Positions 4,224 to 20,380 of a stretch of 64,000 nt of DNA are shown here, in pieces. The stretch lies in NCBI GenBank assembly GCA_045589295.1, contig JAZNOU010000002.1, forward strand, positions 17,283-81,282. Reading direction: 5' to 3'. The DNA is from Clostridia bacterium. Its GTDB lineage: Bacteria; Bacillota; Clostridia; RGIG6154. The translations under genes were made by a program, and so were the position numbers. Under the pieces are notes generated by a model. The model did no database searches. It saw only the letters and a list, made by a program, of their open reading frames with translations, and was not told where the DNA came from. How positions within the stretch are numbered: position 1 is the first letter of the stretch; each line of letters begins with the position of its first letter.

Positions 4224-6914
4224 TTATTTCGATACAACCAAAATCAACTTTGCAGCATTGTTTCTAATGAATGCAAATACCTGTGAAGCACCTGAACGGG
4301 AGCTTTCATAGCCTGCGATTGCATCAATTGTGCTTGTTGTAAGTCTTGCAGTTGAACTTTCTGAAACTGCAGTGTCAAGAATATAGAATTTTGTGTTTGT
4401 TGAAACTGTAATAGTTTTTGCATCTGCACTGTTAAGACTTCCGTCAGCGGCAACGTCATAAGGTGTGATGACAATCAATGAATCATCACGTGCGTAAACT
4501 GTGCCAAAAACAGATTCTCTTGAGTTAACAGAATCAGCAACCTTAACAAATCTGTTTGCTTTACCTTCGGCAAGCAAATTGTCAATATCAAATTCGGGAG
4601 CAACTTCTTTGATATAACCCTTAGAGTTCAGAGCTATTCTTAGAACATCACCTTTGCCGTAACCTGAGATGATGCTTGGGTCATCACAAGTATAAGTCTT
4701 AGTCGCACCATCAACGATTGCCGTAACAGTAGTAACAGGCGTGCCGGTTGAGCTGTCAACAGTTGCTCTGATTGATTCGATAAGGCCAACTGCAACAGAT
4801 GGATCGTTAATTCCAATAAGACCTGAATCACCATAAACAACTACGATATTTGGAACACCTGTTGTTGATGAATCATAAGCTTCAAAACTATATTTTGCCT
4901 GATTTTTAAGTTTTGAATATGTTCCTGTTGAATAGCTTGAGCTATCGCTTCTGTTGGTAGGAATAAACAATATCTTTGTTGATGTTGAAAGTGTAACACC
5001 AGAACCTAACTGCTTGCTGCTTGAAGTGTAAGTAATATCAGTCTGGTATGCTTTTGAAAGAACAAGAGATTTGTCAACATCACCCGAAGTTTTAATTGTA
5101 AAGATATTATCAATCTTTCCTGCTGAGTTTGTTGTGTATTCAATAAGTTGAGCAATTTGTGTATTTGTTGCACCAGCATCCTTGTTTGTAGCAGAATTTG
5201 CGGCAATAAGCGCATCTAGAACAGTGTCATAGCTATATGCGGTGCCGTTAATTTTAACTTTGCTAATACCCTGGAGAATAACTGTTTTATTGTCAGTTGT
5301 AAAGATTTTAAACTGAGGATATTCGTTTTTTTCAAGGGCATCTGCAGCTATTAAGTAACCATACTTTGTGGTAGCAGCAACACTTGTTACAGAAGCTGCA
5401 AGAATTTTATTGCTTTTATCCAGATAGAATGTAACTTTGTCACCTATTGTTATAGCTTCTGAAGGCATCTTTGTGAGATATGTACGGTAGGCATTTGAAT
5501 ATTCATAAGCTTTTCCTCCAACAATAACCAAACCGTCACTATGGTTCATTGATGTAACTGCACCTGAAGCGGTGTTTGTCACTATTTCAACGTTGTATGA
5601 TTGTTTTCCTGCAGGAGACATACTTCCTGAAACCAAAAGAACATCACCTTTTTTGATTTGTGAAAAATCAACTGTAGAGCCTGCTTTTGTTATATTAACA
5701 TCAATCTGGTTTGTTGCTTGATTAAGATTGAGAGACTGAGACTGATCGTATGCGTTGTAAACAATTTTTTTAGCAGTGTCAACAGCAGAAACAACGTAAA
5801 CTTCAGTTGAGTCGATGATAACAACATCATACAATCCGTTTCCGTTGTTGTCAATAAGAGTAATTGAACCTGAATCAGGTTTTAAACTTTGTGTGATGGA
5901 AGCAACGTACTTTCCATTATAAATACCGCTTACATTGCCTGTTTCGAAATTATAAGTTTCAAAATTATTTGTGTTATCAGGGTCAGGGTAATATTCAAGC
6001 TTGTCTGTGTAAAGCTCTTTTATGCGATCAGCTTCAACGGTAACCTGTGAGTTTTGCGATGAAAGTCTTGCAGAAACAAGAATATTGTTTACACCATCGT
6101 TTTTGTAGTAGTAGTTAATCTGCTTACCAAAATAATCTTTAGCAGATGTGGTGCCTACCTTCAATTTTTTGGTGTAATCAATCTGAATCTCATCTTCTTC
6201 AATGCCTGTTGCGCTTGATTTTAAAGCTTTTCCATATACACCTGTAACAATGCCTTTGCCTTCAGTGTATCTAAGCTTTTCAGAAAGAAGAGTGCGATTA
6301 CTTGCGATACCATCTTCTGAAGCAAGCGGAGTTTCCAATGAGTTTGCAATAAGCTGAGCAATTACCTCACGGCTTGCAGGCTCGCTATGTGCAGTTTCAG
6401 CATTGTTTAAAATGCCAAAACCTCTTGCAACTGTTAAGTAGCCTGTAGGCCATCCGCCTTGTTCGAGCGCTGAAGCTTCGTAACCTAAAGTACAAACAAT
6501 CATTTTAACTGCTTGTTCGTATGTAACTTTTTCTTTTGGTCTGAATGTTCCGTCCTCAAAACCTTTGATGATGCCGAGGTCATAAGCAATTTTTGTTGCT
6601 TTTATACTCCAGTCAGCGCAGGTTGAAGCGTTAACATCAGGGAATGGATATTCCGTAACTGATACATTAAGAGCGCCTAATCCCAACACACGTGTCATAA
6701 TAACACTGAATTCTTCACGGCTGATATTAGCCTGCGGTCTGAATGTGTCAGCACCGGCATCGCCTAAAATAATACCAAAATCGTTTAAAGTGTAGATTGC
6801 GTTTTTGTACTTGCTGCTTTCGGCAACATCGCTGAAAGTGGTGGTAGCAGCCATAACAGGGACGTAAGCCAGCACCAAGCTGAGGACAAGCACCATACAA
6901 ATTAATTTTTTCAT
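4224..6914 (-). CDS. S-layer-homology (SLH) domain cell-wall-anchored protein
   Basis: There is a signal peptide (MKKLICMVLVLSLVLAYVPVMA). N-terminal SLH repeats follow (FSDV...FRPQANISREEF; FPDV...GFEDGTFRPKEKVTYEQA), then a long Ser/Thr/Asn-rich beta-type region. Confidence 0.85.
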   Translation of the reverse strand: MKKLICMVLVLSLVLAYVPVMAATTTFSDVAESSKYKNAIYTLNDFGIILGDAGADTFRPQANISREEFSVIMTRVLGLGALNVSVTEYPFPDVNASTCADWSIKATKIAYDLGIIKGFEDGTFRPKEKVTYEQAVKMIVCTLGYEASALEQGGWPTGYLTVARGFGILNNAETAHSEPASREVIAQLIANSLETPLASEDGIASNRTLLSEKLRYTEGKGIVTGVYGKALKSSATGIEEDEIQIDYTKKLKVGTTSAKDYFGKQINYYYKNDGVNNILVSARLSSQNSQVTVEADRIKELYTDKLEYYPDPDNTNNFETYNFETGNVSGIYNGKYVASITQSLKPDSGSITLIDNNGNGLYDVVIIDSTEVYVVSAVDTAKKIVYNAYDQSQSLNLNQATNQIDVNITKAGSTVDFSQIKKGDVLLVSGSMSPAGKQSYNVEIVTNTASGAVTSMNHSDGLVIVGGKAYEYSNAYRTYLTKMPSEAITIGDKVTFYLDKSNKILAASVTSVAATTKYGYLIAADALEKNEYPQFKIFTTDNKTVILQGISKVKINGTAYSYDTVLDALIAANSATNKDAGATNTQIAQLIEYTTNSAGKIDNIFTIKTSGDVDKSLVLSKAYQTDITYTSSSKQLGSGVTLSTSTKILFIPTNRSDSSSYSTGTYSKLKNQAKYSFEAYDSSTTGVPNIVVVYGDSGLIGINDPSVAVGLIESIRATVDSSTGTPVTTVTAIVDGATKTYTCDDPSIISGYGKGDVLRIALNSKGYIKEVAPEFDIDNLLAEGKANRFVKVADSVNSRESVFGTVYARDDSLIVITPYDVAADGSLNSADAKTITVSTNTKFYILDTAVSESSTARLTTSTIDAIAGYESSRSGASQVFAFIRNNAAKLILVVSK

Positions 6915-7117: not shown

Positions 7118-8488
7118 ATGACATATAAAGAATATTTTGGTGGACTAACAGGCAAAAAAGTTTGTGTTATTGGTGCGGGTGTGAGTAATACTCCGCTTAT
7201 TAAAATGCTTATAAATAATGGAAGTATAGTTACTGTCTGCGATAAAAAGAATGACCTTGGGGAACTTGGCAAAGAACTTAAAAGCCTTGGGGCAAAGTTG
7301 ATTTTAGGGGAAAGCTATTTGGAAAATATTGATGCTGATGTAGTTTTCAGAAGCCCAGGAATAAGACCCGACCTTGTTCAGTTTGAGAAGGCAAAAGAGA
7401 TGGGTACGGTTATCACATCAGAAATGGAAGCATTTTTTGAGGTTTGTCCCTGCAAAATTATTGCAGTAACGGGAAGTGACGGCAAAACAACCACAACAAC
7501 CCTTATTTCAGAACTTTTGAAAGAAGAAGGCTTTAATGTTCATATCGGAGGAAATATCGGCAAACCGTTACTTCCAGAAATAGAAAATATAAAACAAGAC
7601 GATATTGCAGTTTTAGAACTTTCAAGTTTTCAACTTTTTACAATAAGAAAAAGTCCGTCAGTTGCGGTTATTACAAATCTTGAGCCAAACCACCTCAACT
7701 GGCATAAGGATTACAAAGAATATATTGATGCCAAAAAGAATATTATGCTCTTCCAAGGGGAAAATGATATTTTAGTAACAAATGCAAATAATAAGGACTC
7801 AGTAGATGTAGAAAAAGAGGCGAAAGGAATTTCAAGAACTTTTTCACGAAAGGTTAATTGTCTTTGTTGCTTAGAGGGAGAAAATATCGTTTACGGCGGT
7901 GAAAAAATTCTTAATATAAATGACATAAAACTTCCCGGACTTCACAACGTTGAAAATTATATGACTGCAATCTGTGCGGTGTATGATTTTGTAAGTAAAA
8001 AAACAATTGAAAAAGTAGCAAAAACTTTTGAGGGTGTTAAACACAGAATTGAGTTTGTAAGAGAGGTTGACGGGGCTAAATTTTATAACGATTCCATCGC
8101 GTCAAGTCCGTCAAGGGCTATTGCAGGGCTTAATTCATTTAATCAGAAGATTATAATGATTGCGGGCGGTCAGGATAAAAAAGTTCCGTATGATATTCTT
8201 GGTCCTGTTATTTGCAAAAGTGTAAAAACACTTGTGTTGCTTGGCAATGGAGCGTTAGATGCAGCAGCACCGCAGATAAGAAAAGCAGTTGAAAACTGTG
8301 AGGAATTCACAAATTGTGGAATAGAAATAAAGGAGACAACTTCATTGAAAGATGCTGTGCTTATGGCTAAAGAAAGTGCAAAATCGGGAGATGTGGTAAT
8401 GCTTTGCCCTGCGGCAACAAGCTTTGATATGTTCAAAAATTTTGAAGAGCGCGGAAATTTATTTAAGGATTTGGTGAATAAACTTTGA
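7118..8488 (+). CDS. murD: UDP-N-acetylmuramoylalanine--D-glutamate ligase
   Basis: Mur ligase motifs are present (VTGSDGKTTTT P-loop, NxxPNHLNWH). Length and N-terminal Rossmann GAGVSN fit. I prefer the ATG at 7118 with RBS GGGAGAG over the ORF-track start at 7058. Confidence 0.9.
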   Translation: MTYKEYFGGLTGKKVCVIGAGVSNTPLIKMLINNGSIVTVCDKKNDLGELGKELKSLGAKLILGESYLENIDADVVFRSPGIRPDLVQFEKAKEMGTVITSEMEAFFEVCPCKIIAVTGSDGKTTTTTLISELLKEEGFNVHIGGNIGKPLLPEIENIKQDDIAVLELSSFQLFTIRKSPSVAVITNLEPNHLNWHKDYKEYIDAKKNIMLFQGENDILVTNANNKDSVDVEKEAKGISRTFSRKVNCLCCLEGENIVYGGEKILNINDIKLPGLHNVENYMTAICAVYDFVSKKTIEKVAKTFEGVKHRIEFVREVDGAKFYNDSIASSPSRAIAGLNSFNQKIIMIAGGQDKKVPYDILGPVICKSVKTLVLLGNGALDAAAPQIRKAVENCEEFTNCGIEIKETTSLKDAVLMAKESAKSGDVVMLCPAATSFDMFKNFEERGNLFKDLVNKL

Positions 8489-12607: not shown

Positions 12608-13066
12608 ATGAAAAAAGTTAATTTGTATACCGATGGTGCATGTTCTGGAAATCCGGGACCGGGCGGATATGGCGCAATTTTAGAGTACGGCGGAAGAAAA
12701 AAGGAGCTTTCGGGCGGGTTTGAAAACACAACCAATAACAGAATGGAACTTATGGCCGTAATTAGAGGATTAGATGCCTTAAAAGAACCGTGTGAGGTAA
12801 CAGTTATAAGCGACTCTAAATATGTTGTAGATGCCATAAATAAAGGTTGGGTTTATAACTGGGAGAGTAACGGATGGCTTAAAAGCGATAAAAAGCCCGC
12901 ATCAAATATTGACCTGTGGGAAAATCTTCTGGCACTGATGGATGAACATGTAGTAACATATACATGGATTGAAGGGCACAATGGCCATCCTGAGAACGAA
13001 AGATGCGACCAATTGGCAGTTGCAGCAAGCAAAAGCGAAAATAAAGAAACAGATGAATTTTTTTAA
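12608..13066 (+). CDS. rnhA: Ribonuclease HI
   Basis: [17 protein letters not shown]...TNNRMEL...SDSKYV...W...[15 protein letters not shown] carries the RNase H DEDD residues. Confidence 0.9.
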
Positions 13067-13072
13067 AAAATA

Positions 13073-13101
13073 TTGACAAACTAATGGTATTGTGATATTA
13101 T
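13073..13101 (+). promoter_or_regulatory. SigA-type promoter of tRNA-Asn
   Basis: TTGACA (13073-13078), 17-nt spacer, TATTAT (13096-13101). Confidence 0.6.
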
Positions 13102-13116
13102 AAGCCTTGTTAATAT

Positions 13117-13192
13117 TCCTCAATAGCTCAGTCGGTAGAGCATGCGGCTGTTAACCGCAGGGTCGTTGGTTCGAGTCCAACTTGGGGAGCCA
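13117..13192 (+). tRNA. tRNA-Asn (anticodon GUU)
   Basis: The cloverleaf was read by hand: acceptor TCCTCAA/TTGGGGA, anticodon arm TGCGG-CTGTTAA-CCGCA, T-arm GTTGG-TTCGAGT-CCAAC, with an encoded CCA. Confidence 0.9.
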
Positions 13193-13194
13193 AA

Positions 13195-13231
13195 GTCTAA
13201 ATGACACCGAAGGTGTTGTTTAGACTTTTTC
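13195..13231 (+). terminator. Rho-independent terminator after tRNA-Asn
   Basis: Stems GTCTAAA (13195-13201) / TTTAGAC (13219-13225) plus an inner ACACC/GGTGT, followed by TTTTT. Confidence 0.65.
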
Positions 13232-13232
13232 T

Positions 13233-13436
13233 TTTAGTTTGTGCACGAACCAACAATTCAATTGTAAACAGCCGCATATGCGGCGTTAACCAAAGGGGCT
13301 TGAGCACGACCGCCGCCAGTGGCGGAAGAAGGGAGTGTGAAAGCGGAAGCAAAAAGGAGAATTGCGAGCGAGAGCGTAGCAATGCGACTATTTTGTTGAC
13401 CGGACCGTTGGTTCGAGTCCAACTTGGGGAGCCAAA
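13233..13436 (+). ncRNA. tRNA-Asn-derived module: a degenerate anticodon-arm-like segment, a ~110-nt insert with a conserved core, and an exact 31-nt copy of the tRNA-Asn 3' end (T-arm, acceptor 3' strand, CCA)
   Basis: 13406-13436 is identical to 13164-13194. ATGCGGCGTTAACC (13279-13292) matches the tRNA anticodon arm ATGCGGCTGTTAACC apart from one deleted T. The conserved core is 13307-13335. The module is followed by its own terminator. No credible ORF is present. Confidence 0.4.
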
Positions 13437-13444
13437 ACAAAAAA

Positions 13445-13470
13445 GGGTGCAAAAGGCACCCTTTTTGTTT
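13445..13470 (+). terminator. Rho-independent terminator after the tRNA-Asn-derived module
   Basis: GGGTGC / GCACCC stem followed by TTTTTGTTTT. Confidence 0.65.
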
Positions 13471-13505
13471 TACTTTTTGTGTGGTGTATAAACCAACGAT
13501 ATGGA

Positions 13506-13550
13506 TTGACAATATCCTGTGAGTATTGTATTATTATAATCACAGGATAT
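13506..13550 (+). promoter_or_regulatory. Promoter with an embedded 11-bp perfect inverted repeat (candidate operator)
   Basis: TTGACA (13506-13511), 17-nt spacer, TATTAT (13529-13534). ATATCCTGTGA (13512-13522) and TCACAGGATAT (13540-13550) are exact reverse complements bracketing the -10. Confidence 0.55.
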
Positions 13551-13560
13551 TTTTAATGAG

Positions 13561-14830: not shown

Positions 14831-14860
14831 AAGGCAGTGTAAAAAAATTTTTAAAAAGTA

Positions 14861-14889
14861 TTGACAAACGGATATCCTTGTGGTAAAAT
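14861..14889 (+). promoter_or_regulatory. SigA-type promoter of the tRNA-Ser pair
   Basis: TTGACA (14861-14866), 17-nt spacer, TAAAAT (14884-14889). Confidence 0.6.
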
Positions 14890-14902
14890 AACATAGTGCT
14901 GT

Positions 14903-15015: not shown

Positions 15016-15109
15016 GGAGAAATACCCAAGTCGGCCGAAGGGGGCGGTTTGCTAAACCGTTAGGTCGGGATTCCCCGGCGCGAGGGTTCGAATCCCTCTT
15101 TCTCCGCCA
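15016..15109 (+). tRNA. tRNA-Ser (anticodon GCU)
   Basis: Acceptor GGAGAAA/TTTCTCC, anticodon loop TTGCTAA, a long variable arm, T-arm GAGGG-TTCGAAT-CCCTC, and CCA. Confidence 0.9.
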
Positions 15110-15114
15110 AAACA

Positions 15115-15145
15115 AAAGACACCTTTGGGTGTCTTTTGTTGTTTT
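15115..15145 (+). terminator. Rho-independent terminator after the tRNA-Ser pair
   Basis: GACACC (15118-15123) / GGTGTC (15128-15133) stem, extended by A/T pairs, followed by a T-run. Confidence 0.65.
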
Positions 15146-15233
15146 CAAATTAACTTGCTTTAAACCACCAATAGTTGACACGCAATTTTATGGATGATAT
15201 AATTGAGGTGTAAATTATGAAAGGGGAATAAAT

Positions 15234-15494
15234 ATGGAAGCGGGAAAAATGTGTCAGGTTACAGCGGTAGTGTTATTTATACTTGGCGTTGTAGCGTCAA
15301 TAATTATTGCAATAGGCGGAGAAAGTTTTTTAATTTTTTTATATGTTCTTGCAATAGATTTTGTAAGTTGTTTGCTTTTATACAGTATTGGAGAGATAAT
15401 AGAACAGCTTTATATCGCCAACACAAATATTTATGCAATACATAATGTTGTGTACAGCTTTATACAACAGAAAAAAGAAAAACAGGATAAATAG
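15234..15494 (+). CDS. Small hypothetical membrane protein (two predicted TM helices)
   Basis: An 86-aa ORF with two hydrophobic stretches (VTAVVLFILGVVASIIIAIGG; LIFLYVLAIDFVSCLLLYSIG). An RBS-like GGGGAA lies upstream. I recognise no family. Confidence 0.45.
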   Translation: MEAGKMCQVTAVVLFILGVVASIIIAIGGESFLIFLYVLAIDFVSCLLLYSIGEIIEQLYIANTNIYAIHNVVYSFIQQKKEKQDK

Positions 15495-15502
15495 ATAACA
15501 AA

Positions 15503-15528
15503 AAAAGACACCAAAAGGTGTCTTTTTA
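15503..15528. terminator. Bidirectional hairpin terminator
   Basis: AAAAAAGACACC-AAAA-GGTGTCTTTTT lies between the converging small ORF (+) and the tRNA-Val/Met operon (-). Confidence 0.65.
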
Positions 15529-15530
15529 TT

Positions 15531-15606
15531 TGGTGGGAACAATAGGGCTCGAACCTATGACCCTCTGCTTGTAAGGCAGATGCTCTCCCAGCTGAGCTAT
15601 GCTCCC
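15531..15606 (-). tRNA. tRNA-Val (anticodon UAC)
   Basis: The reverse complement gives GGGAGCATAGCTCAGCTGGGAGAGCATCTGCCTTACAAGCAGAGGGTCATAGGTTCGAGCCCTATTGTTCCCACCA, which folds as a cloverleaf with anticodon loop CTTACAA. Confidence 0.9.
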
Positions 15607-15686: not shown

Positions 15687-15711
15687 ATATGTCTTTAAAT
15701 CAGCAATCAAT

Positions 15712-15740
15712 ATTATAACAAACAAAAATATATTTGTCAA
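15712..15740 (-). promoter_or_regulatory. SigA-type promoter of the tRNA-Met/Val operon
   Basis: On the minus strand: TTGACA (15740-15735), 17-nt spacer, TATAAT (15717-15712). Perfect consensus. Confidence 0.65.
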
Positions 15741-15759
15741 TACTTTTTTGCTAAAAAAT

Positions 15760-20015: not shown

Positions 20016-20044
20016 TTGATTTTTTTTATGTTATAGTGTATACT
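20016..20044 (+). promoter_or_regulatory. SigA-type promoter driving the tRNA-Glu-like module plus tRNA-Glu
   Basis: TTGATT (20016-20021), 17-nt spacer, TATACT (20039-20044). Confidence 0.5.
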
Positions 20045-20097
20045 GAATGACGTAGAATTTGCGTGTTTAAATTCATATCAATTATGCATCATTCGTT

Positions 20098-20290
20098 ATA
20101 AGGCTCTATCGTCTAATGGTTAGGACTTTGGCCCCAAAAGGCTGGAATAGGGGTGTCCGCGTAGCGACCGCTGCCTGTGGCAGAAAAAGGGAGCACGCAA
20201 GGACTGTGCAGTAACACAATGAATTGAGCCAAAGTTTGGCGAAAATGAATTGATGTTACAAACGGGTAGAATTCTGGATTCGAACCCATA
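20098..20290 (+). ncRNA. tRNA-Glu-derived module: an exact copy of the tRNA-Glu 5' part with an altered anticodon arm, a ~124-nt insert inside the T-loop, and no acceptor 3' strand
   Basis: 20098-20126 is identical to 20302-20330 (acceptor 5' strand and D-arm). 20138-20154 is identical to 20342-20358 (anticodon 3' stem, variable loop, T-stem 5' strand). The insert is 20155-20278, followed by a TTCGAACCC remnant at 20279-20287. The conserved core is 20165-20193. Confidence 0.4.
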
Positions 20291-20305
20291 AAAAATTAAA
20301 TATAA

Positions 20306-20380
20306 GGCTCTATCGTCTAATGGTTAGGACACAGCCCTCTCAAGGCTGGAATAGGGGTTCGAATCCCCTTAGAGTCACCA
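20306..20380 (+). tRNA. tRNA-Glu (anticodon CUC)
   Basis: Acceptor GGCTCTA/TAGAGTC, anticodon arm CAGCC-CTCTCAA-GGCTG, T-arm AGGGG-TTCGAAT-CCCCT, and CCA. Overall it resembles Bacillus tRNA-Glu. Confidence 0.85.

Follow-up and report, generated by a model that had tools for sequence, protein, structure and literature searches.

Why should two non-coding inserts next to different tRNA genes share a nearly identical and apparently structured sequence? In the window (the whole 64,000-nt stretch of clostridial DNA analyzed), a 29-nt core occurs twice, as CGACCGCCGCCAGTGGCGGAAGAAGGGAG beside tRNA-Asn (copy A) and as CGACCGCTGCCTGTGGCAGAAAAAGGGAG beside tRNA-Glu (copy B), with three differing positions (Table 1). 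A sequence-only reading of the window had proposed this common core, and both copies are present as described. No further match with three or fewer mismatches was found in the window, and none is expected by chance (0 in 100 shuffles). A covariance model built from homologs scored 56.4 and 55.8 bits for copies A and B and detected nothing else in the window.

Structure of the two copies

The inner hairpin of the core differs between the two copies by a change from C-G to U-A. This change is real and recurs among homologs, with 37 C:G pairs, 13 U:A pairs, and 0 broken pairs in 50 sequences. The outer helix said to enclose the core was also found in both copies; the pairing proposed for copy B (GUCCGCG with CGC(aa)GGAC) stands, and the register proposed for copy A was off by one base. 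According to the family alignment, this helix (P1) in copy A pairs GCUU-GA-GCA with UGU-GA-AAGC and has tandem G.A/A.G pairs in its middle, while C13307 pairs with G13335 inside the core. The copy A core is laid out as a C:G pair, tandem G.A/A.G, and two further C:G pairs, followed by an asymmetric loop (G / A-rich) and a 5-bp hairpin with an NGU triloop. The second hairpins reported downstream of the cores, ATTGC/GCAAT in copy A and GCCAA/TTGGC in copy B, correspond to the apical helix P3 of a 3′ domain. Both modules had further been described as rejoining a tRNA T-loop sequence (TTCGA). Copy A terminates in an exact copy of the tRNA-Asn 3′ end; in copy B, TTCGA sits in an inverted T-loop-like piece rather than a direct one.

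On the 5′ side of copy A, the degenerate copy of the anticodon arm terminates in GGG, which is the 5′ junction of the element and is conserved in the family alignment. Two terminator-like hairpins flank this copy, forming a dual-terminator layout. Locus B is kept in another species (L091) with compensatory changes in P2, and the altered anticodon region of its partial tRNA-Glu copy is also found in that orthologous locus. Outside the core, copies A and B have little in common, and their 3′ domains belong to different types.

Table 1. Features of the tRNA-Asn locus (A) and the tRNA-Glu locus (B), in window positions.
Feature	Position	Strand	Basis
A: intact tRNA-Asn(GTT), host gene of copy A	13117..13192	+	ARAGORN; Rfam tRNA 68.7 bits
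A: terminator-like hairpin 1 and T-run, between tRNA-Asn and element	13192..13238	+	Terminator scan: 17-pair stem, then TTCTTTTAGT
A: inverted copy of tRNA-Asn positions ~26-57	13239..13277	+	Inverted repeat, 72% complementary to 13142-13180
A: degenerate direct copy of tRNA-Asn anticodon arm (ATGCGGCGTTAACCAAAGGG)	13278..13297	+	Local alignment to tRNA positions 26-46
A: P1 5′ strand (GCUUGAGCA)	13298..13306	+	Pairs with 13336-13344; P1 covaries in 25 type-2 sequences
A: 29-nt core	13307..13335	+	Sequence match; variant cores with compensatory changes
A: P1 3′ strand (UGUGAAAGC)	13336..13344	+	Type-2 covariation
A: type-2 3′ domain, with 3′ tail GACCGG	13345..13403	+	Type-2 alignment and pair counts
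A: P2	13348-13354 with 13391-13397		
A: second, flipped tandem-G.A module (GGAG/CGAC)	13356-13359 with 13385-13388		
A: P3	13361-13365 with 13379-13383		
A: 31-nt direct copy of tRNA-Asn 3′ end (T-arm, acceptor 3′ strand, CCA, +3 nt)	13406..13436	+	100% identical to 13164-13194
A: terminator-like hairpin 2	13440..13466	+	Terminator scan
B: promoter-like site (TTGATT-17-TATACT), upstream of copy B	20016..20044	+	Promoter scan
B: partial tRNA-Glu 5′ copy (leader, acceptor 5′ strand, D-arm, altered anticodon arm, T-stem 5′ strand)	20097..20154	+	58-nt direct repeat, 88% identical to 20301-20358
B: P1 5′ strand	20155..20164	+	Family alignment, model
B: 29-nt core	20165..20193	+	Sequence match, model
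B: P1 3′ strand and type-1 3′ domain, with tail AAACGGGUA	20194..20268	+	Model match 20149-20268, 55.8 bits; P2 covariation
B: P1 3′ strand	20194-20204		
B: P2 (GUAAC with GUUAC)	20211-20215 with 20255-20259		Doubly compensated variant of family GCGGU/ACCGC
B: P3	20216-20254		
B: inverted T-loop-like piece (GGATTCGAACCCAT), complementary to T-arm of downstream tRNA-Glu	20277..20290	+	Minus-strand alignment to tRNA positions 47-61
B: intact tRNA-Glu(CTC), host gene of copy B	20306..20380	+	ARAGORN; Rfam

A widespread element with a conserved fold

The core is the center of a structured element of ~120 nt, here called M. Homologs, for which the sequence-only reading had suggested a search, proved numerous: among the matches listed, the search returned at least 120 loci in ~95 assemblies, and >140 copies of M were found in the genomes of ~95 gut and rumen Clostridia, counted at the species level. 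The covariance model gave 147 matches (115 + 32) in the loci searched. Copies are also present in gut phage contigs. The copy number ranges from 1 to >12 per genome, and copies are more alike within one genome than between genomes. A search of plasmids gave 0 matches, and a strict core pattern had 0 matches in IMG/VR.

Two alignments, of 50 type-1 and 25 type-2 sequences, were used to examine covariation. The score was 0.424 for type 1, versus 0.152 for shuffled (0/500) and at most 0.137 for slid controls, and 0.402 for type 2, versus 0.131 (0/500) and at most 0.102, respectively. The covariation that the earlier proposal called for is thus strong in both types. The supported parts are P1, which encloses the core and is rich in tandem G.A pairs; the hairpin of the core; and the 3′ domain in its two alternative types. 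Variant cores also have compensated pairs (CGAGC...GCGAG, and CCCAC...GUGGG with the tandem G.A replaced by two C:G pairs). Stems covary across homologs, in agreement with the suggestion of a functional fold rather than random decay. Judging from these alignments, the fold of M is kept by compensatory changes across families, and its flanks are free to vary.

The non-canonical pairs provide information about the folded strand. There are 252 G.A/A.G oppositions versus 19 C.U/U.C, which shows that the strand in the tRNA sense is the one that folds; counts of G.U versus A.C (22 vs 18 and 17 vs 24) do not discriminate, and only the asymmetry of G.A versus C.U is informative as a strand test. Because these G.A pairs are specific to one strand, a folded single strand is favored over duplex DNA. 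An 11-bp inverted repeat, CGACCGCTGCC...GGCAGCGGTCG, is also found inside type-1 M. Two other structural models were tried and rejected. In the main subfamily, core nt 1-11 are complementary to the stretch immediately preceding P2, giving an alternative helix of 11 bp, but this helix is broken by P2 variants without compensation. A kink-turn in the core was rejected by inspection because the G.A pairs do not directly follow the bulge.

The sequence-only reading did not recognize any known RNA family, and a search of the window and canonical copies against Rfam 15 gave no match at E up to 10, including for the known classes of self-cleaving ribozymes (hammerhead, twister, pistol, hatchet, HDV-like, and others). 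The core sequence was not found in a literature search and is absent from the part of the supplements to a human-microbiome structured-RNA catalog that was covered. M thus represents a newly recognized, widespread, and strongly conserved fold of an RNA (or single strand) that is absent from Rfam and occurs in Clostridia dominant in the gut and rumen.

Association with tRNA genes

A tRNA gene lies within ~300 nt of ~65 of the 128 copies, on the same strand in ~60 cases and on the opposite strand in 6. Copy A and ~35 other loci have a downstream layout, in which M is located just 3′ of the tRNA in the same orientation; copy B and ~20 loci have the mirror-image upstream layout. The tRNA-linked copies have at their border a direct repeat of part of the tRNA, either its 3′ part (as in copy A) or its 5′ part (as in copy B). 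In Ruminococcoides intestinale CLA-JM-H38, two type-2 copies (L043, positions 5419 and 6881) each follow a tRNA-Leu(GAG) gene. The 3′ repeat covers 31/31 nt in copy A and 20-42 nt elsewhere and often continues into the terminator and spacer, such that some loci duplicate the tRNA 3′ part together with its terminator. An inverted tRNA piece similar to that beside copy A was seen in ~22 loci of the downstream type. Flanking inverted repeats are long in some subfamilies and absent in others, for example in the minimal insertion of phage contig L128.

Flanking direct repeats exceeded the 95th percentile of a cross-locus control in 51% of the copies, and the direct repeats of the target, which usually bound a copy, range from ~16 to >90 nt. 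In tRNA genes, the repeat spans from a tRNA loop to beyond one end of the gene; the intact tRNA therefore survives beside a partial copy fused to M. The T-arm had been put forward as the target of insertion. T loops are indeed among the junctions, but junctions are also found in D, anticodon, and variable loops and at sites without a tRNA. Tandem arrays of M were seen at L039, L101, and L115. At the ends of arrays, partial units keep the 5′ part of M and miss the 3′ part; a regular-expression count of 5′- versus 3′-truncated copies was confounded by the internal inverted repeat.

We also considered a composite of tRNA and M, folded into a giant tRNA-like structure through the far acceptor strand. 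This was the minimum free energy structure in 30 of 33 loci, but it also formed in ~89% of cases when the internal region was shuffled, so the long-range acceptor pairing is a property of the energy model and not evidence for such a fold.

Probable mobility and genomic neighborhoods

Evidence for movement comes from two related phages, L127 and L128, whose contigs are genuine phage head modules and which differ by the presence or absence of M at two sites. Between TerL and portal, one has ~275 nt of intergenic DNA and the other 17 nt. In the protease-scaffold ORF, a 138-nt insertion is in frame, adding 46 aa without a stop codon, and the sequence ‘LQLFA’ is duplicated. The insertion in L128 comprises ~117 nt of M plus a direct target duplication of ~20 nt (16-22) at a non-tRNA target, and is missing from the sister phage. 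In addition, a single Faecousia assembly contains 12 or more intergenic copies that are nearly identical and have no tRNA close by, and contigs break inside them. M is a discrete unit. Among the three candidate readings offered earlier, a miniature mobile insertion associated with tRNAs fits best with the presence/absence in phages and the burst in one genome.

The genome of the window itself appears to hold no sign of recent M movement. No empty site in its own species was found among four contigs with an identical RNase H; one (L121) has the filled tRNA-Asn locus, and the others (L122-L124) end so near the RNase H gene that the site is not covered.

Genes for a recombinase, transposase, or reverse transcriptase do not accompany M in the neighborhoods examined (±3 kb). 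All-against-all clustering of 1292 neighboring ORFs revealed no recurrent linked protein, the largest cluster covering 5 loci. Pfam searches of the 148 nearest ORFs found 189 families, none of them in more than three members and with no integrase, RVT, or transposase family enriched; a serine recombinase was seen in only 2 of these ORFs. Away from tRNAs, the orientation of M relative to neighboring protein genes has no bias (++ 18, -- 17). With such random orientation, many copies cannot be sense RNA from a host operon.

Possible nature of the element

Taken together, we consider it probable that M represents a new family of protein-less, non-autonomous mobile elements, the conserved part of which is a folded single strand in tRNA sense that would be co-transcribed with the tRNA. 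Co-transcription of copy B is suggested because the only promoter-like site lies upstream of it (no other plus-strand site was found by the promoter scan before 20514) and the terminator scan found no terminator between M and tRNA-Glu. In that case, the tRNA-Glu precursor would have copy B as its 5′ leader, which could be freed by RNase P. A trans-acting machinery encoded elsewhere may recognize the folded strand, which would place the fold under selection, and the arrays may grow by unequal recombination between duplicated tRNA parts. Several observations speak against this explanation. No mobilizing enzyme was found, M is oriented at random to protein genes away from tRNAs, and the two copies of the window differ in 3′-domain type and bear no sign of recent movement. 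The inverted tRNA fragments upstream of downstream-type copies do not follow from it, and long flanking inverted repeats are confined to some subfamilies. The partial units in arrays keep their 5′ part, whereas retroposons are typically truncated at the 5′ end, and the conservation of locus B in L091 could equally mean a useful host RNA.

Several routes of copying may be envisaged for such a mobile element. An RNA intermediate, as in SINEs, is a tentative possibility; it would explain why target duplications vary, why terminal inverted repeats and a protein are lacking, and why copies are co-oriented with tRNAs. A route through single-stranded DNA or a recombinase is rather doubtful, and template switching at replication is unlikely, as is a domesticated small RNA that spread by recombination only. 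A more specific version, in which M is a bacterial retroposon-like element whose tRNA-operon transcript is copied to DNA by an unlinked reverse transcriptase or RNA-templated repair and inserted at staggered breaks, seems quite unlikely. In a variant of this version, the M fold may be a putative new catalytic RNA that aids its own insertion.

Among the rivals to a mobile element, the one that survives best is a small RNA that belongs to the host and its tRNA operons, comparable in Clostridia to the tRNA-linked repeats (TLRs) of Escherichia coli. Such an RNA would act in trans or bind proteins and be matured by tRNA-processing enzymes, with the duplicated tRNA ends serving as processing signals; its copies would spread solely by ordinary recombination of conserved tRNA segments. 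The architecture equals that of TLRs (a 3′ end repeating the upstream tRNA, two terminators), the fold is under long-term purifying selection, and the strand bias toward tRNAs (~60:6) and the persistence of the tRNA-Glu locus in both the window and L091, with compensation of the changes in P2, agree with this explanation. Moreover, junctions at the universally conserved D-loop/T-loop blocks could provide microhomology between different tRNA genes. However, copies are found inside phage head operons, one of them in frame within an ORF, and the near-identical copies of the Faecousia burst lie away from tRNAs. Some copies are antisense to flanking operons, the copy number varies widely among genomes (1 to >12), and the GGA-containing motifs are base-paired, unlike the exposed ones of CsrA sponges. 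A host small RNA is an unlikely account of the family.

We regard it as very unlikely that the units are small integrative elements mobilized in trans by a site-specific recombinase, with the tRNA repeat as the att core and M as the attP arm region to which the recombinase or its accessory factors bind. The anticodon loop, the variable-loop/T-stem boundary, and the T-loop are sublocations used by tRNA-targeting integrases, and the tRNA 3′ repeats start at these positions. Tandem arrays resemble accretion at an att site, and the 11-bp internal inverted repeat of type-1 M also fits. The earlier suggestion of an attP flank is nonetheless weak, since no integrase linked to M was found, nor was an integrase family enriched in the nearest ORFs. 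To be excised as circles, units of 200-250 bp would be very small, in many copies it is the tRNA 5′ part that is duplicated, the phage insertion duplicated ~20 nt of a non-tRNA target, and the variable repeat length (16 to >90 nt) and strand-specific G.A pairs also argue against this reading.

Finally, an intron or self-processing ribozyme that is removed from tRNA loops to restore the tRNA, as a bacterial analog of the transposed introns of Thermoproteales, is extremely improbable. In its favor, M has a compact conserved fold, and where it occupies tRNA-like sequences it is always sense-oriented and placed in a loop (D, anticodon, variable, or T). Against it, each tRNA copy interrupted by M has lost its other half or retains it in decayed form, and always has an intact copy beside it; these are truncated pseudo-copies, rather than working tRNAs that harbor an RNA. 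Moreover, ARAGORN with introns allowed found no split or intron-containing tRNA over any copy, Rfam has no matching intron or ribozyme, and the 138-nt phage insertion keeps the frame without a stop codon and has a duplicated start region, which fits read-through translation better than splicing.

Comparison with known systems

The TLRs of E. coli (RtT RNA; Egan and Landy, 1978; Rudd, 1999) are located between dual terminators and transcribed by read-through (PMC8144298). Each locus has 1-5 units, which match the upstream tRNA exactly at the 3′ end and bind both Hfq and CsrA in vitro (PMC8144298). Similarly, M is short, non-coding, and found in tRNA operons, and in the layout of copy A its 3′ end repeats that of the upstream tRNA; against a TLR criterion of ~18-19 nt of terminal identity to the upstream gene, copy A has 31/31 nt. 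Both also have one to several tandem units per locus with a partial final unit, occupy many tRNA loci per genome, and have no linked protein or established function. Unlike TLRs, M has a longer and more variable repeated tRNA block (20-42 nt, often further), a mirror-image upstream layout that repeats the tRNA 5′ part, copies away from tRNAs and in phages, and a far more elaborate fold supported by covariation. There is also no similarity in sequence or structure, as Rfam 15, which presumably includes the RtT family model (RF00391), gave no match to M at E up to 10.

Like MITEs and the Correia, ERIC, REPIN, and RPE repeats, M is small, non-coding, and multi-copy, can form a long hairpin, and bursts in single genomes. 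In-frame insertion in protein-coding genes is known for the Rickettsia palindromic elements (RPE), and one copy of M is likewise in frame within a protein-coding gene. MITEs are conserved in their terminal inverted repeats, which they share with a parent insertion sequence, and duplicate a target of fixed, short length. In contrast, it is the interior of M that is conserved across families with compensatory changes, its inverted flanks vary by subfamily or are missing, its target duplications range from ~16-22 to >90 nt, and no transposase was found nearby; we know of no parent insertion sequence. As in islands and prophages of tyrosine integrases, the insert is bordered by a directly repeated part of the tRNA, the intact tRNA is regenerated, and junctions lie at the anticodon loop and T-loop. 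Unlike tRNA-targeting integrative elements, however, the insert has 200-250 bp rather than kilobases and no integrase, and 5′-part duplications and non-tRNA targets are common and present, respectively.

Transposed introns in the tRNA genes of Thermoproteales lie within functional tRNAs and are spliced by an endonuclease at bulge-helix-bulge motifs; to our knowledge, bacteria lack this splicing endonuclease. Related M inserts likewise occupy several non-canonical loop positions of different tRNA genes, but the copies interrupted by M are truncated pseudo-copies beside an intact gene. The tRNA-related SINEs of eukaryotes share more with M, namely, the short length, absence of a protein, variable target duplications, a conserved central domain with differing flanking modules, and the link to tRNAs. 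Variable target duplications and the absence of terminal inverted repeats are both traits of the SINE type. Unlike in SINEs, the tRNA pieces of M match the neighboring gene and are thus local instead of traveling with the element, no reverse transcriptase is found among its neighbors (although a partner enzyme could act in trans), and truncated units miss the 3′ rather than the 5′ part. If copying goes through RNA, M would be the first SINE-like element in bacteria.

M also has practical implications. It breaks metagenome assemblies, makes partial tRNA copies that may be mistaken for att sites of integrated elements, and would add long structured leaders or trailers to tRNA precursors. With ~95 species, two types of 3′ domain, both layouts, and phage copies with empty sites, M offers a richer comparative set on the origin of such units, and it connects the unexplained tRNA-linked repeats of E. 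coli, known since 1978, with the small selfish repeats that insert into genes.

Two copies of the element in the window

Both 29-nt cores of the element, here called M (about 120 nt), lie where the sequence-only reading had placed them, and they differ from each other at 3 positions. The 64-kb window holds no third core match at up to 3 mismatches, and shuffled sequence gave 0 matches in 100 trials. Copy A is located 3' of tRNA-Asn(GTT), is flanked by two terminator-like hairpins, one on each side, and ends in an exact 31-nt repeat of the 3' end of this tRNA. Copy B is located 5' of tRNA-Glu(CTC) and starts with a 58-nt repeat (88% identical) of the leader and 5' part of that tRNA; its only promoter-like site is upstream of the element, with no terminator between. 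With Rfam 15, only tRNAs were found in the window at gathering score, and nothing relevant was found over either insert at E values up to 10; the sequence-only reading had likewise recognized no known RNA family. The observation made in that reading is confirmed, and its interpretation as a conserved fold is supported.

Positions of the features discussed, in the window or in homologous loci (L handles)
Feature	Sequence	Positions	Remark
Core, copy A	window	13307-13335	type 2
Core, copy B	window	20165-20193	type 1, P2 changed from GCGGU/ACCGC to GUAAC/GUUAC
tRNA-Asn(GTT)	window	13117-13192	
tRNA-Glu(CTC)	window	20306-20380	
Promoter-like site, copy B	window	20016-20044	
Promoter stretch, tRNA-Asn	window	13060-13103	
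Promoter stretch, tRNA-Ser/Ser	window	14848-14891	
Promoter stretch, tRNA-Met/Val	window	15711-15748	minus strand
77-nt inverted repeat	window	15085-15161 and 15479-15555	75% complementary
22-nt inverted repeat	window	13505-13557	86% complementary
Type-1 copy with enlarged P3	L053	1736-1964	
Tandem tRNA-Pro-like copies	L041	about 7470-7700	three copies
Protease-scaffold insertion	L128 (phage)	4940-5110	compared with L127 (phage) 5180-5260

Homologs and distribution

A scan of a single genome from each species, using a search pattern in which the core was fixed and the covarying and loop positions were left free, gave at least 120 loci from about 95 different assemblies. Named records among the matches listed are all Clostridia of gut or rumen (Faecousia, Acutalibacteraceae, Oscillospiraceae, Ruminococcus, Ruminiclostridium, Candidatus Faeciplasma, and others), which mostly belong to the order Oscillospirales; one of them, Ruminococcoides intestinale, is a cultured isolate. 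The same core pattern had 0 matches in IMG/VR, and blastn found M in nine unverified gut phage contigs and in no plasmid. Covariance model searches of the fetched loci gave 115 + 32 matches.

Conserved fold and covariation

In the flanking sequences of these loci, a helix (P1) with a sequence that varies from locus to locus encloses the core in every case. The 3' domain that follows, with helices P2 and P3, is of two main types, with the consensus ...GGCGCA-GCGGUC-(hairpin P3)-GGGC-ACCGC-AAGAGGG in type 1 and ...GAAAUA-AGGAG-(hairpin P3)-CGACUA-UAUUUC-GAC in type 2. The compensatory changes that the sequence-only reading had seen between two copies recur across the family. Among 50 non-redundant type-1 sequences (alignment A2), 81.4% of cells are paired in the named structure (65.0% when shuffled), and the covariation score is 0.424 vs. 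0.152 shuffled, a value that 0 of 500 shuffles reached; sliding the 3' partners by 1-3 columns lowered it to at most 0.137. For the 25 type-2 sequences (alignment A5), which include copy A, the corresponding values are 80.7% and 65.7% of cells paired, and 0.402 vs. 0.131 (0 of 500 shuffles), with at most 0.102 after sliding. RNAalifold recovered the same helices from A2 unaided and lengthened the core to C15:G43, C18:G40, and C19:G39. In the window, a covariance model built from A2 matched copies A and B, which scored 56.4 and 55.8 bits, and nothing else.

Twelve model matches carry cores outside the reach of the search pattern and add covariation that the pattern-found set lacked. In the variant core CGAGC...GCGAG, C18:G40 becomes G:C; in CCCAC...GUGGG, two C:G pairs replace the tandem G.A/A.G and a C:G becomes A:U; the variant hairpins are CGCCC/GGGCG, CUCAC/GUGAG, and CGUCC/GGACG. 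The core is predicted to be a continuous helix (C:G, G.A, A.G, C:G, C:G), followed by an asymmetric loop in which a G faces five mostly-A residues and by a 5-bp stem with an NGU triloop. In type 2, a second module (GGAG/CGAC) is present in flipped orientation. Since G.A/A.G oppositions far outnumber C.U/U.C (252 vs. 19), the tRNA-sense strand is the folded one; the G.U vs. A.C count does not discriminate between strands. This strand may be RNA or single-stranded DNA, both being compatible with the data. That M is a real structured family is, in our judgment, nearly certain.

Three further observations concern type 1. In its main subfamily (A2 columns 15-25 and 58-68, e.g., loci L033 and L027), GGCAGCGGUCG, before and within P2, exactly matches the reverse complement of core nt 1-11 (CGACCGCUGCC), so an alternative 11-bp helix, incompatible with both the core hairpin and P2, is possible; it is unconserved in variants. 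The copy in locus L053 (core UGAGC...GCGAG, hairpin CUCAC/GUGAG) has about 110 extra nt within the P3 hairpin, so the P3 tip tolerates large insertions. At tRNA-Ser(GCT) loci such as L002 and L025, a likeness was noted between the 3' part of M (UCGGGCACCGCAAGAGGGGUU) and the neighboring tRNA-Ser in its variable arm and T-stem (UCGGGCAACCGGCGCGAGGGUU), a hint of a possible class II tRNA origin for part of M.

Genomic context

M is a discrete unit without a protein gene. Around the 128 copies found with the pattern, no protein family recurs, and clusters of neighboring ORFs span 5 loci at most. Pfam searches of the 148 nearest ORFs gave 189 families, each in at most three members, and no integrase, reverse transcriptase, or transposase was prominent. 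Orientation relative to neighboring protein genes is random. About 65 of the 128 copies lie no more than about 300 nt from a tRNA gene, about 60 of them on the same strand as the tRNA, and many tRNA species are represented.

Two arrangements are seen repeatedly. In the downstream layout, the tRNA is followed by a terminator, a spacer that often holds an inverted tRNA piece, M, and a direct repeat of the 3' portion of the tRNA, which begins at the anticodon loop, the variable-loop/T-stem boundary, or the T-loop. In the upstream layout, M comes after a direct repeat of the leader and the 5' portion of the tRNA, which stops in the D-loop, anticodon loop, or T-stem, and a spacer separates M from the intact tRNA. 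Both layouts occur at one tRNA-Pro (L066). The duplicated block often runs past the tRNA, across terminator and spacer. Flanking direct repeats exceed the 95th percentile of cross-locus controls in 51% of all copies. The tRNA copies interrupted by M are truncated or decayed, and ARAGORN in intron mode found no split tRNA over M; an intact tRNA persists beside the interrupted copy.

Locus L041 has three tRNA-Pro-like copies in tandem. The first is a truncated pseudo-copy that lacks M, the second a pseudo-copy in which M lies in the D-loop, 3' of G18G19, and the third the intact gene. The first two have the same diverged 3' flank and look like a filled/empty pair inside one locus. In two Acutalibacteraceae species, the terminator 3' of the element at tRNA-Ser(GCT) in one (L012) is the terminator 5' of it in the other (L065), and these lineages appear to have gained units, or rearranged them, independently of each other at this one locus. 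The tRNA-Ser(GCT) locus carries M in at least 11 other species; that of the window is without it.

Other features of the window were also noted. Promoters of three tRNA transcription units have in common a stretch of about 40 nt (TTTTTAAAAA.TATTGACAAAC..., 71-77% identical) that looks like an A/T-rich upstream element with a -35 box. The 77-nt inverted repeat lies at the convergent tRNA-Ser(GCT) and tRNA-Val genes, which resemble each other at the 3' end and have near-identical terminator hairpins. The 22-nt inverted repeat spans a promoter-like site of a PHP-family phosphatase gene and could be an operator.

Amplification and probable mobility

M is amplified in arrays and bursts. Tandem arrays, which terminate in a partial unit, occur at L039 (period 196), L101 (period 214; three full units and a truncated fourth), and L115. 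One Faecousia assembly (JAZUQE01) has at least 12 contigs with near-identical copies (L001, L006, L009, L027, L055, L056, L058, L059, L079, L097, L102, and L117) in a unit of ~400 nt with ~40-nt terminal inverted repeats (AAATTGGTATTTGTCGGGCAGAGCAATCGTAGGGACGGCC...). Most of these contigs break off within the unit, and L056 is a shorter variant without about 120 nt. Several further genomes have 3-4 copies each, more alike within a genome than between genomes.

Of the phage contigs, L127 and L128 are genuine head modules, with genes for the large terminase, portal, protease/scaffold, and major head protein, and differ in the presence of M at two sites. Between terL and portal, L127 has about 275 nt with M and a 13-bp inverted repeat, whereas L128 has 17 nt. 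In the protease-scaffold ORF, L128 has an in-frame 46-codon insertion absent from L127, made up of about 117 nt of M plus a directly duplicated segment of about 19-22 nt. The insertion lies directly after the internal start "MMDLQLFA," and the duplication repeats this start and "LQLFA." The 3' end of M also provides a Shine-Dalgarno-like GGGGAG 5 nt ahead of the duplicated ATG, so a nested scaffold protein could still start downstream of the insertion. These presence/absence differences indicate that M is a discrete insertion able to enter new sites, and we consider it quite probably mobile.

Proposed mechanism

M inserts with direct duplication of its target, and its fold is kept by compensatory change. 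It may be co-transcribed with the tRNA: given the sole promoter-like site upstream of copy B and no terminator between, the tRNA-Glu precursor should carry an M leader, which RNase P would cut off. Unlinked machinery may recognize the folded strand. Copying may go through an RNA intermediate, through single-stranded DNA or a recombinase, or by template switching. The explanation as a whole is moderately favored.

Comparison with known systems

A close likeness is to the tRNA-linked repeats (TLRs) of Escherichia coli, a family of 22 units at ten loci that has no established function. The final 18-19 nt of each TLR unit come from the upstream tRNA or rRNA gene, and some units are flanked by dual terminators and transcribed by read-through (PMC8144298). 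The downstream layout of M is the TLR layout. However, M is outside this family by sequence and structure, because Rfam, which includes the TLR model (RtT), gives no match over it. Features of M that are not reported for TLRs are its upstream layout, its occurrence at sites other than tRNAs, and its copies in phages. Variable target duplications and the lack of terminal repeats are features that M shares with SINE-type retroposons, but its truncation pattern is the reverse of theirs and M is without a known reverse transcriptase partner. MITEs are defined by conserved terminal repeats and a fixed duplication length, and M fails both tests. M likewise fails the defining tests for integrase-borne elements, introns, and known ribozymes. 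M is a new family, a variant of the small non-autonomous repeat or tRNA-linked repeat kind, and is unusual among such repeats in that its conserved fold is elaborate and the contexts in which it occurs are varied.
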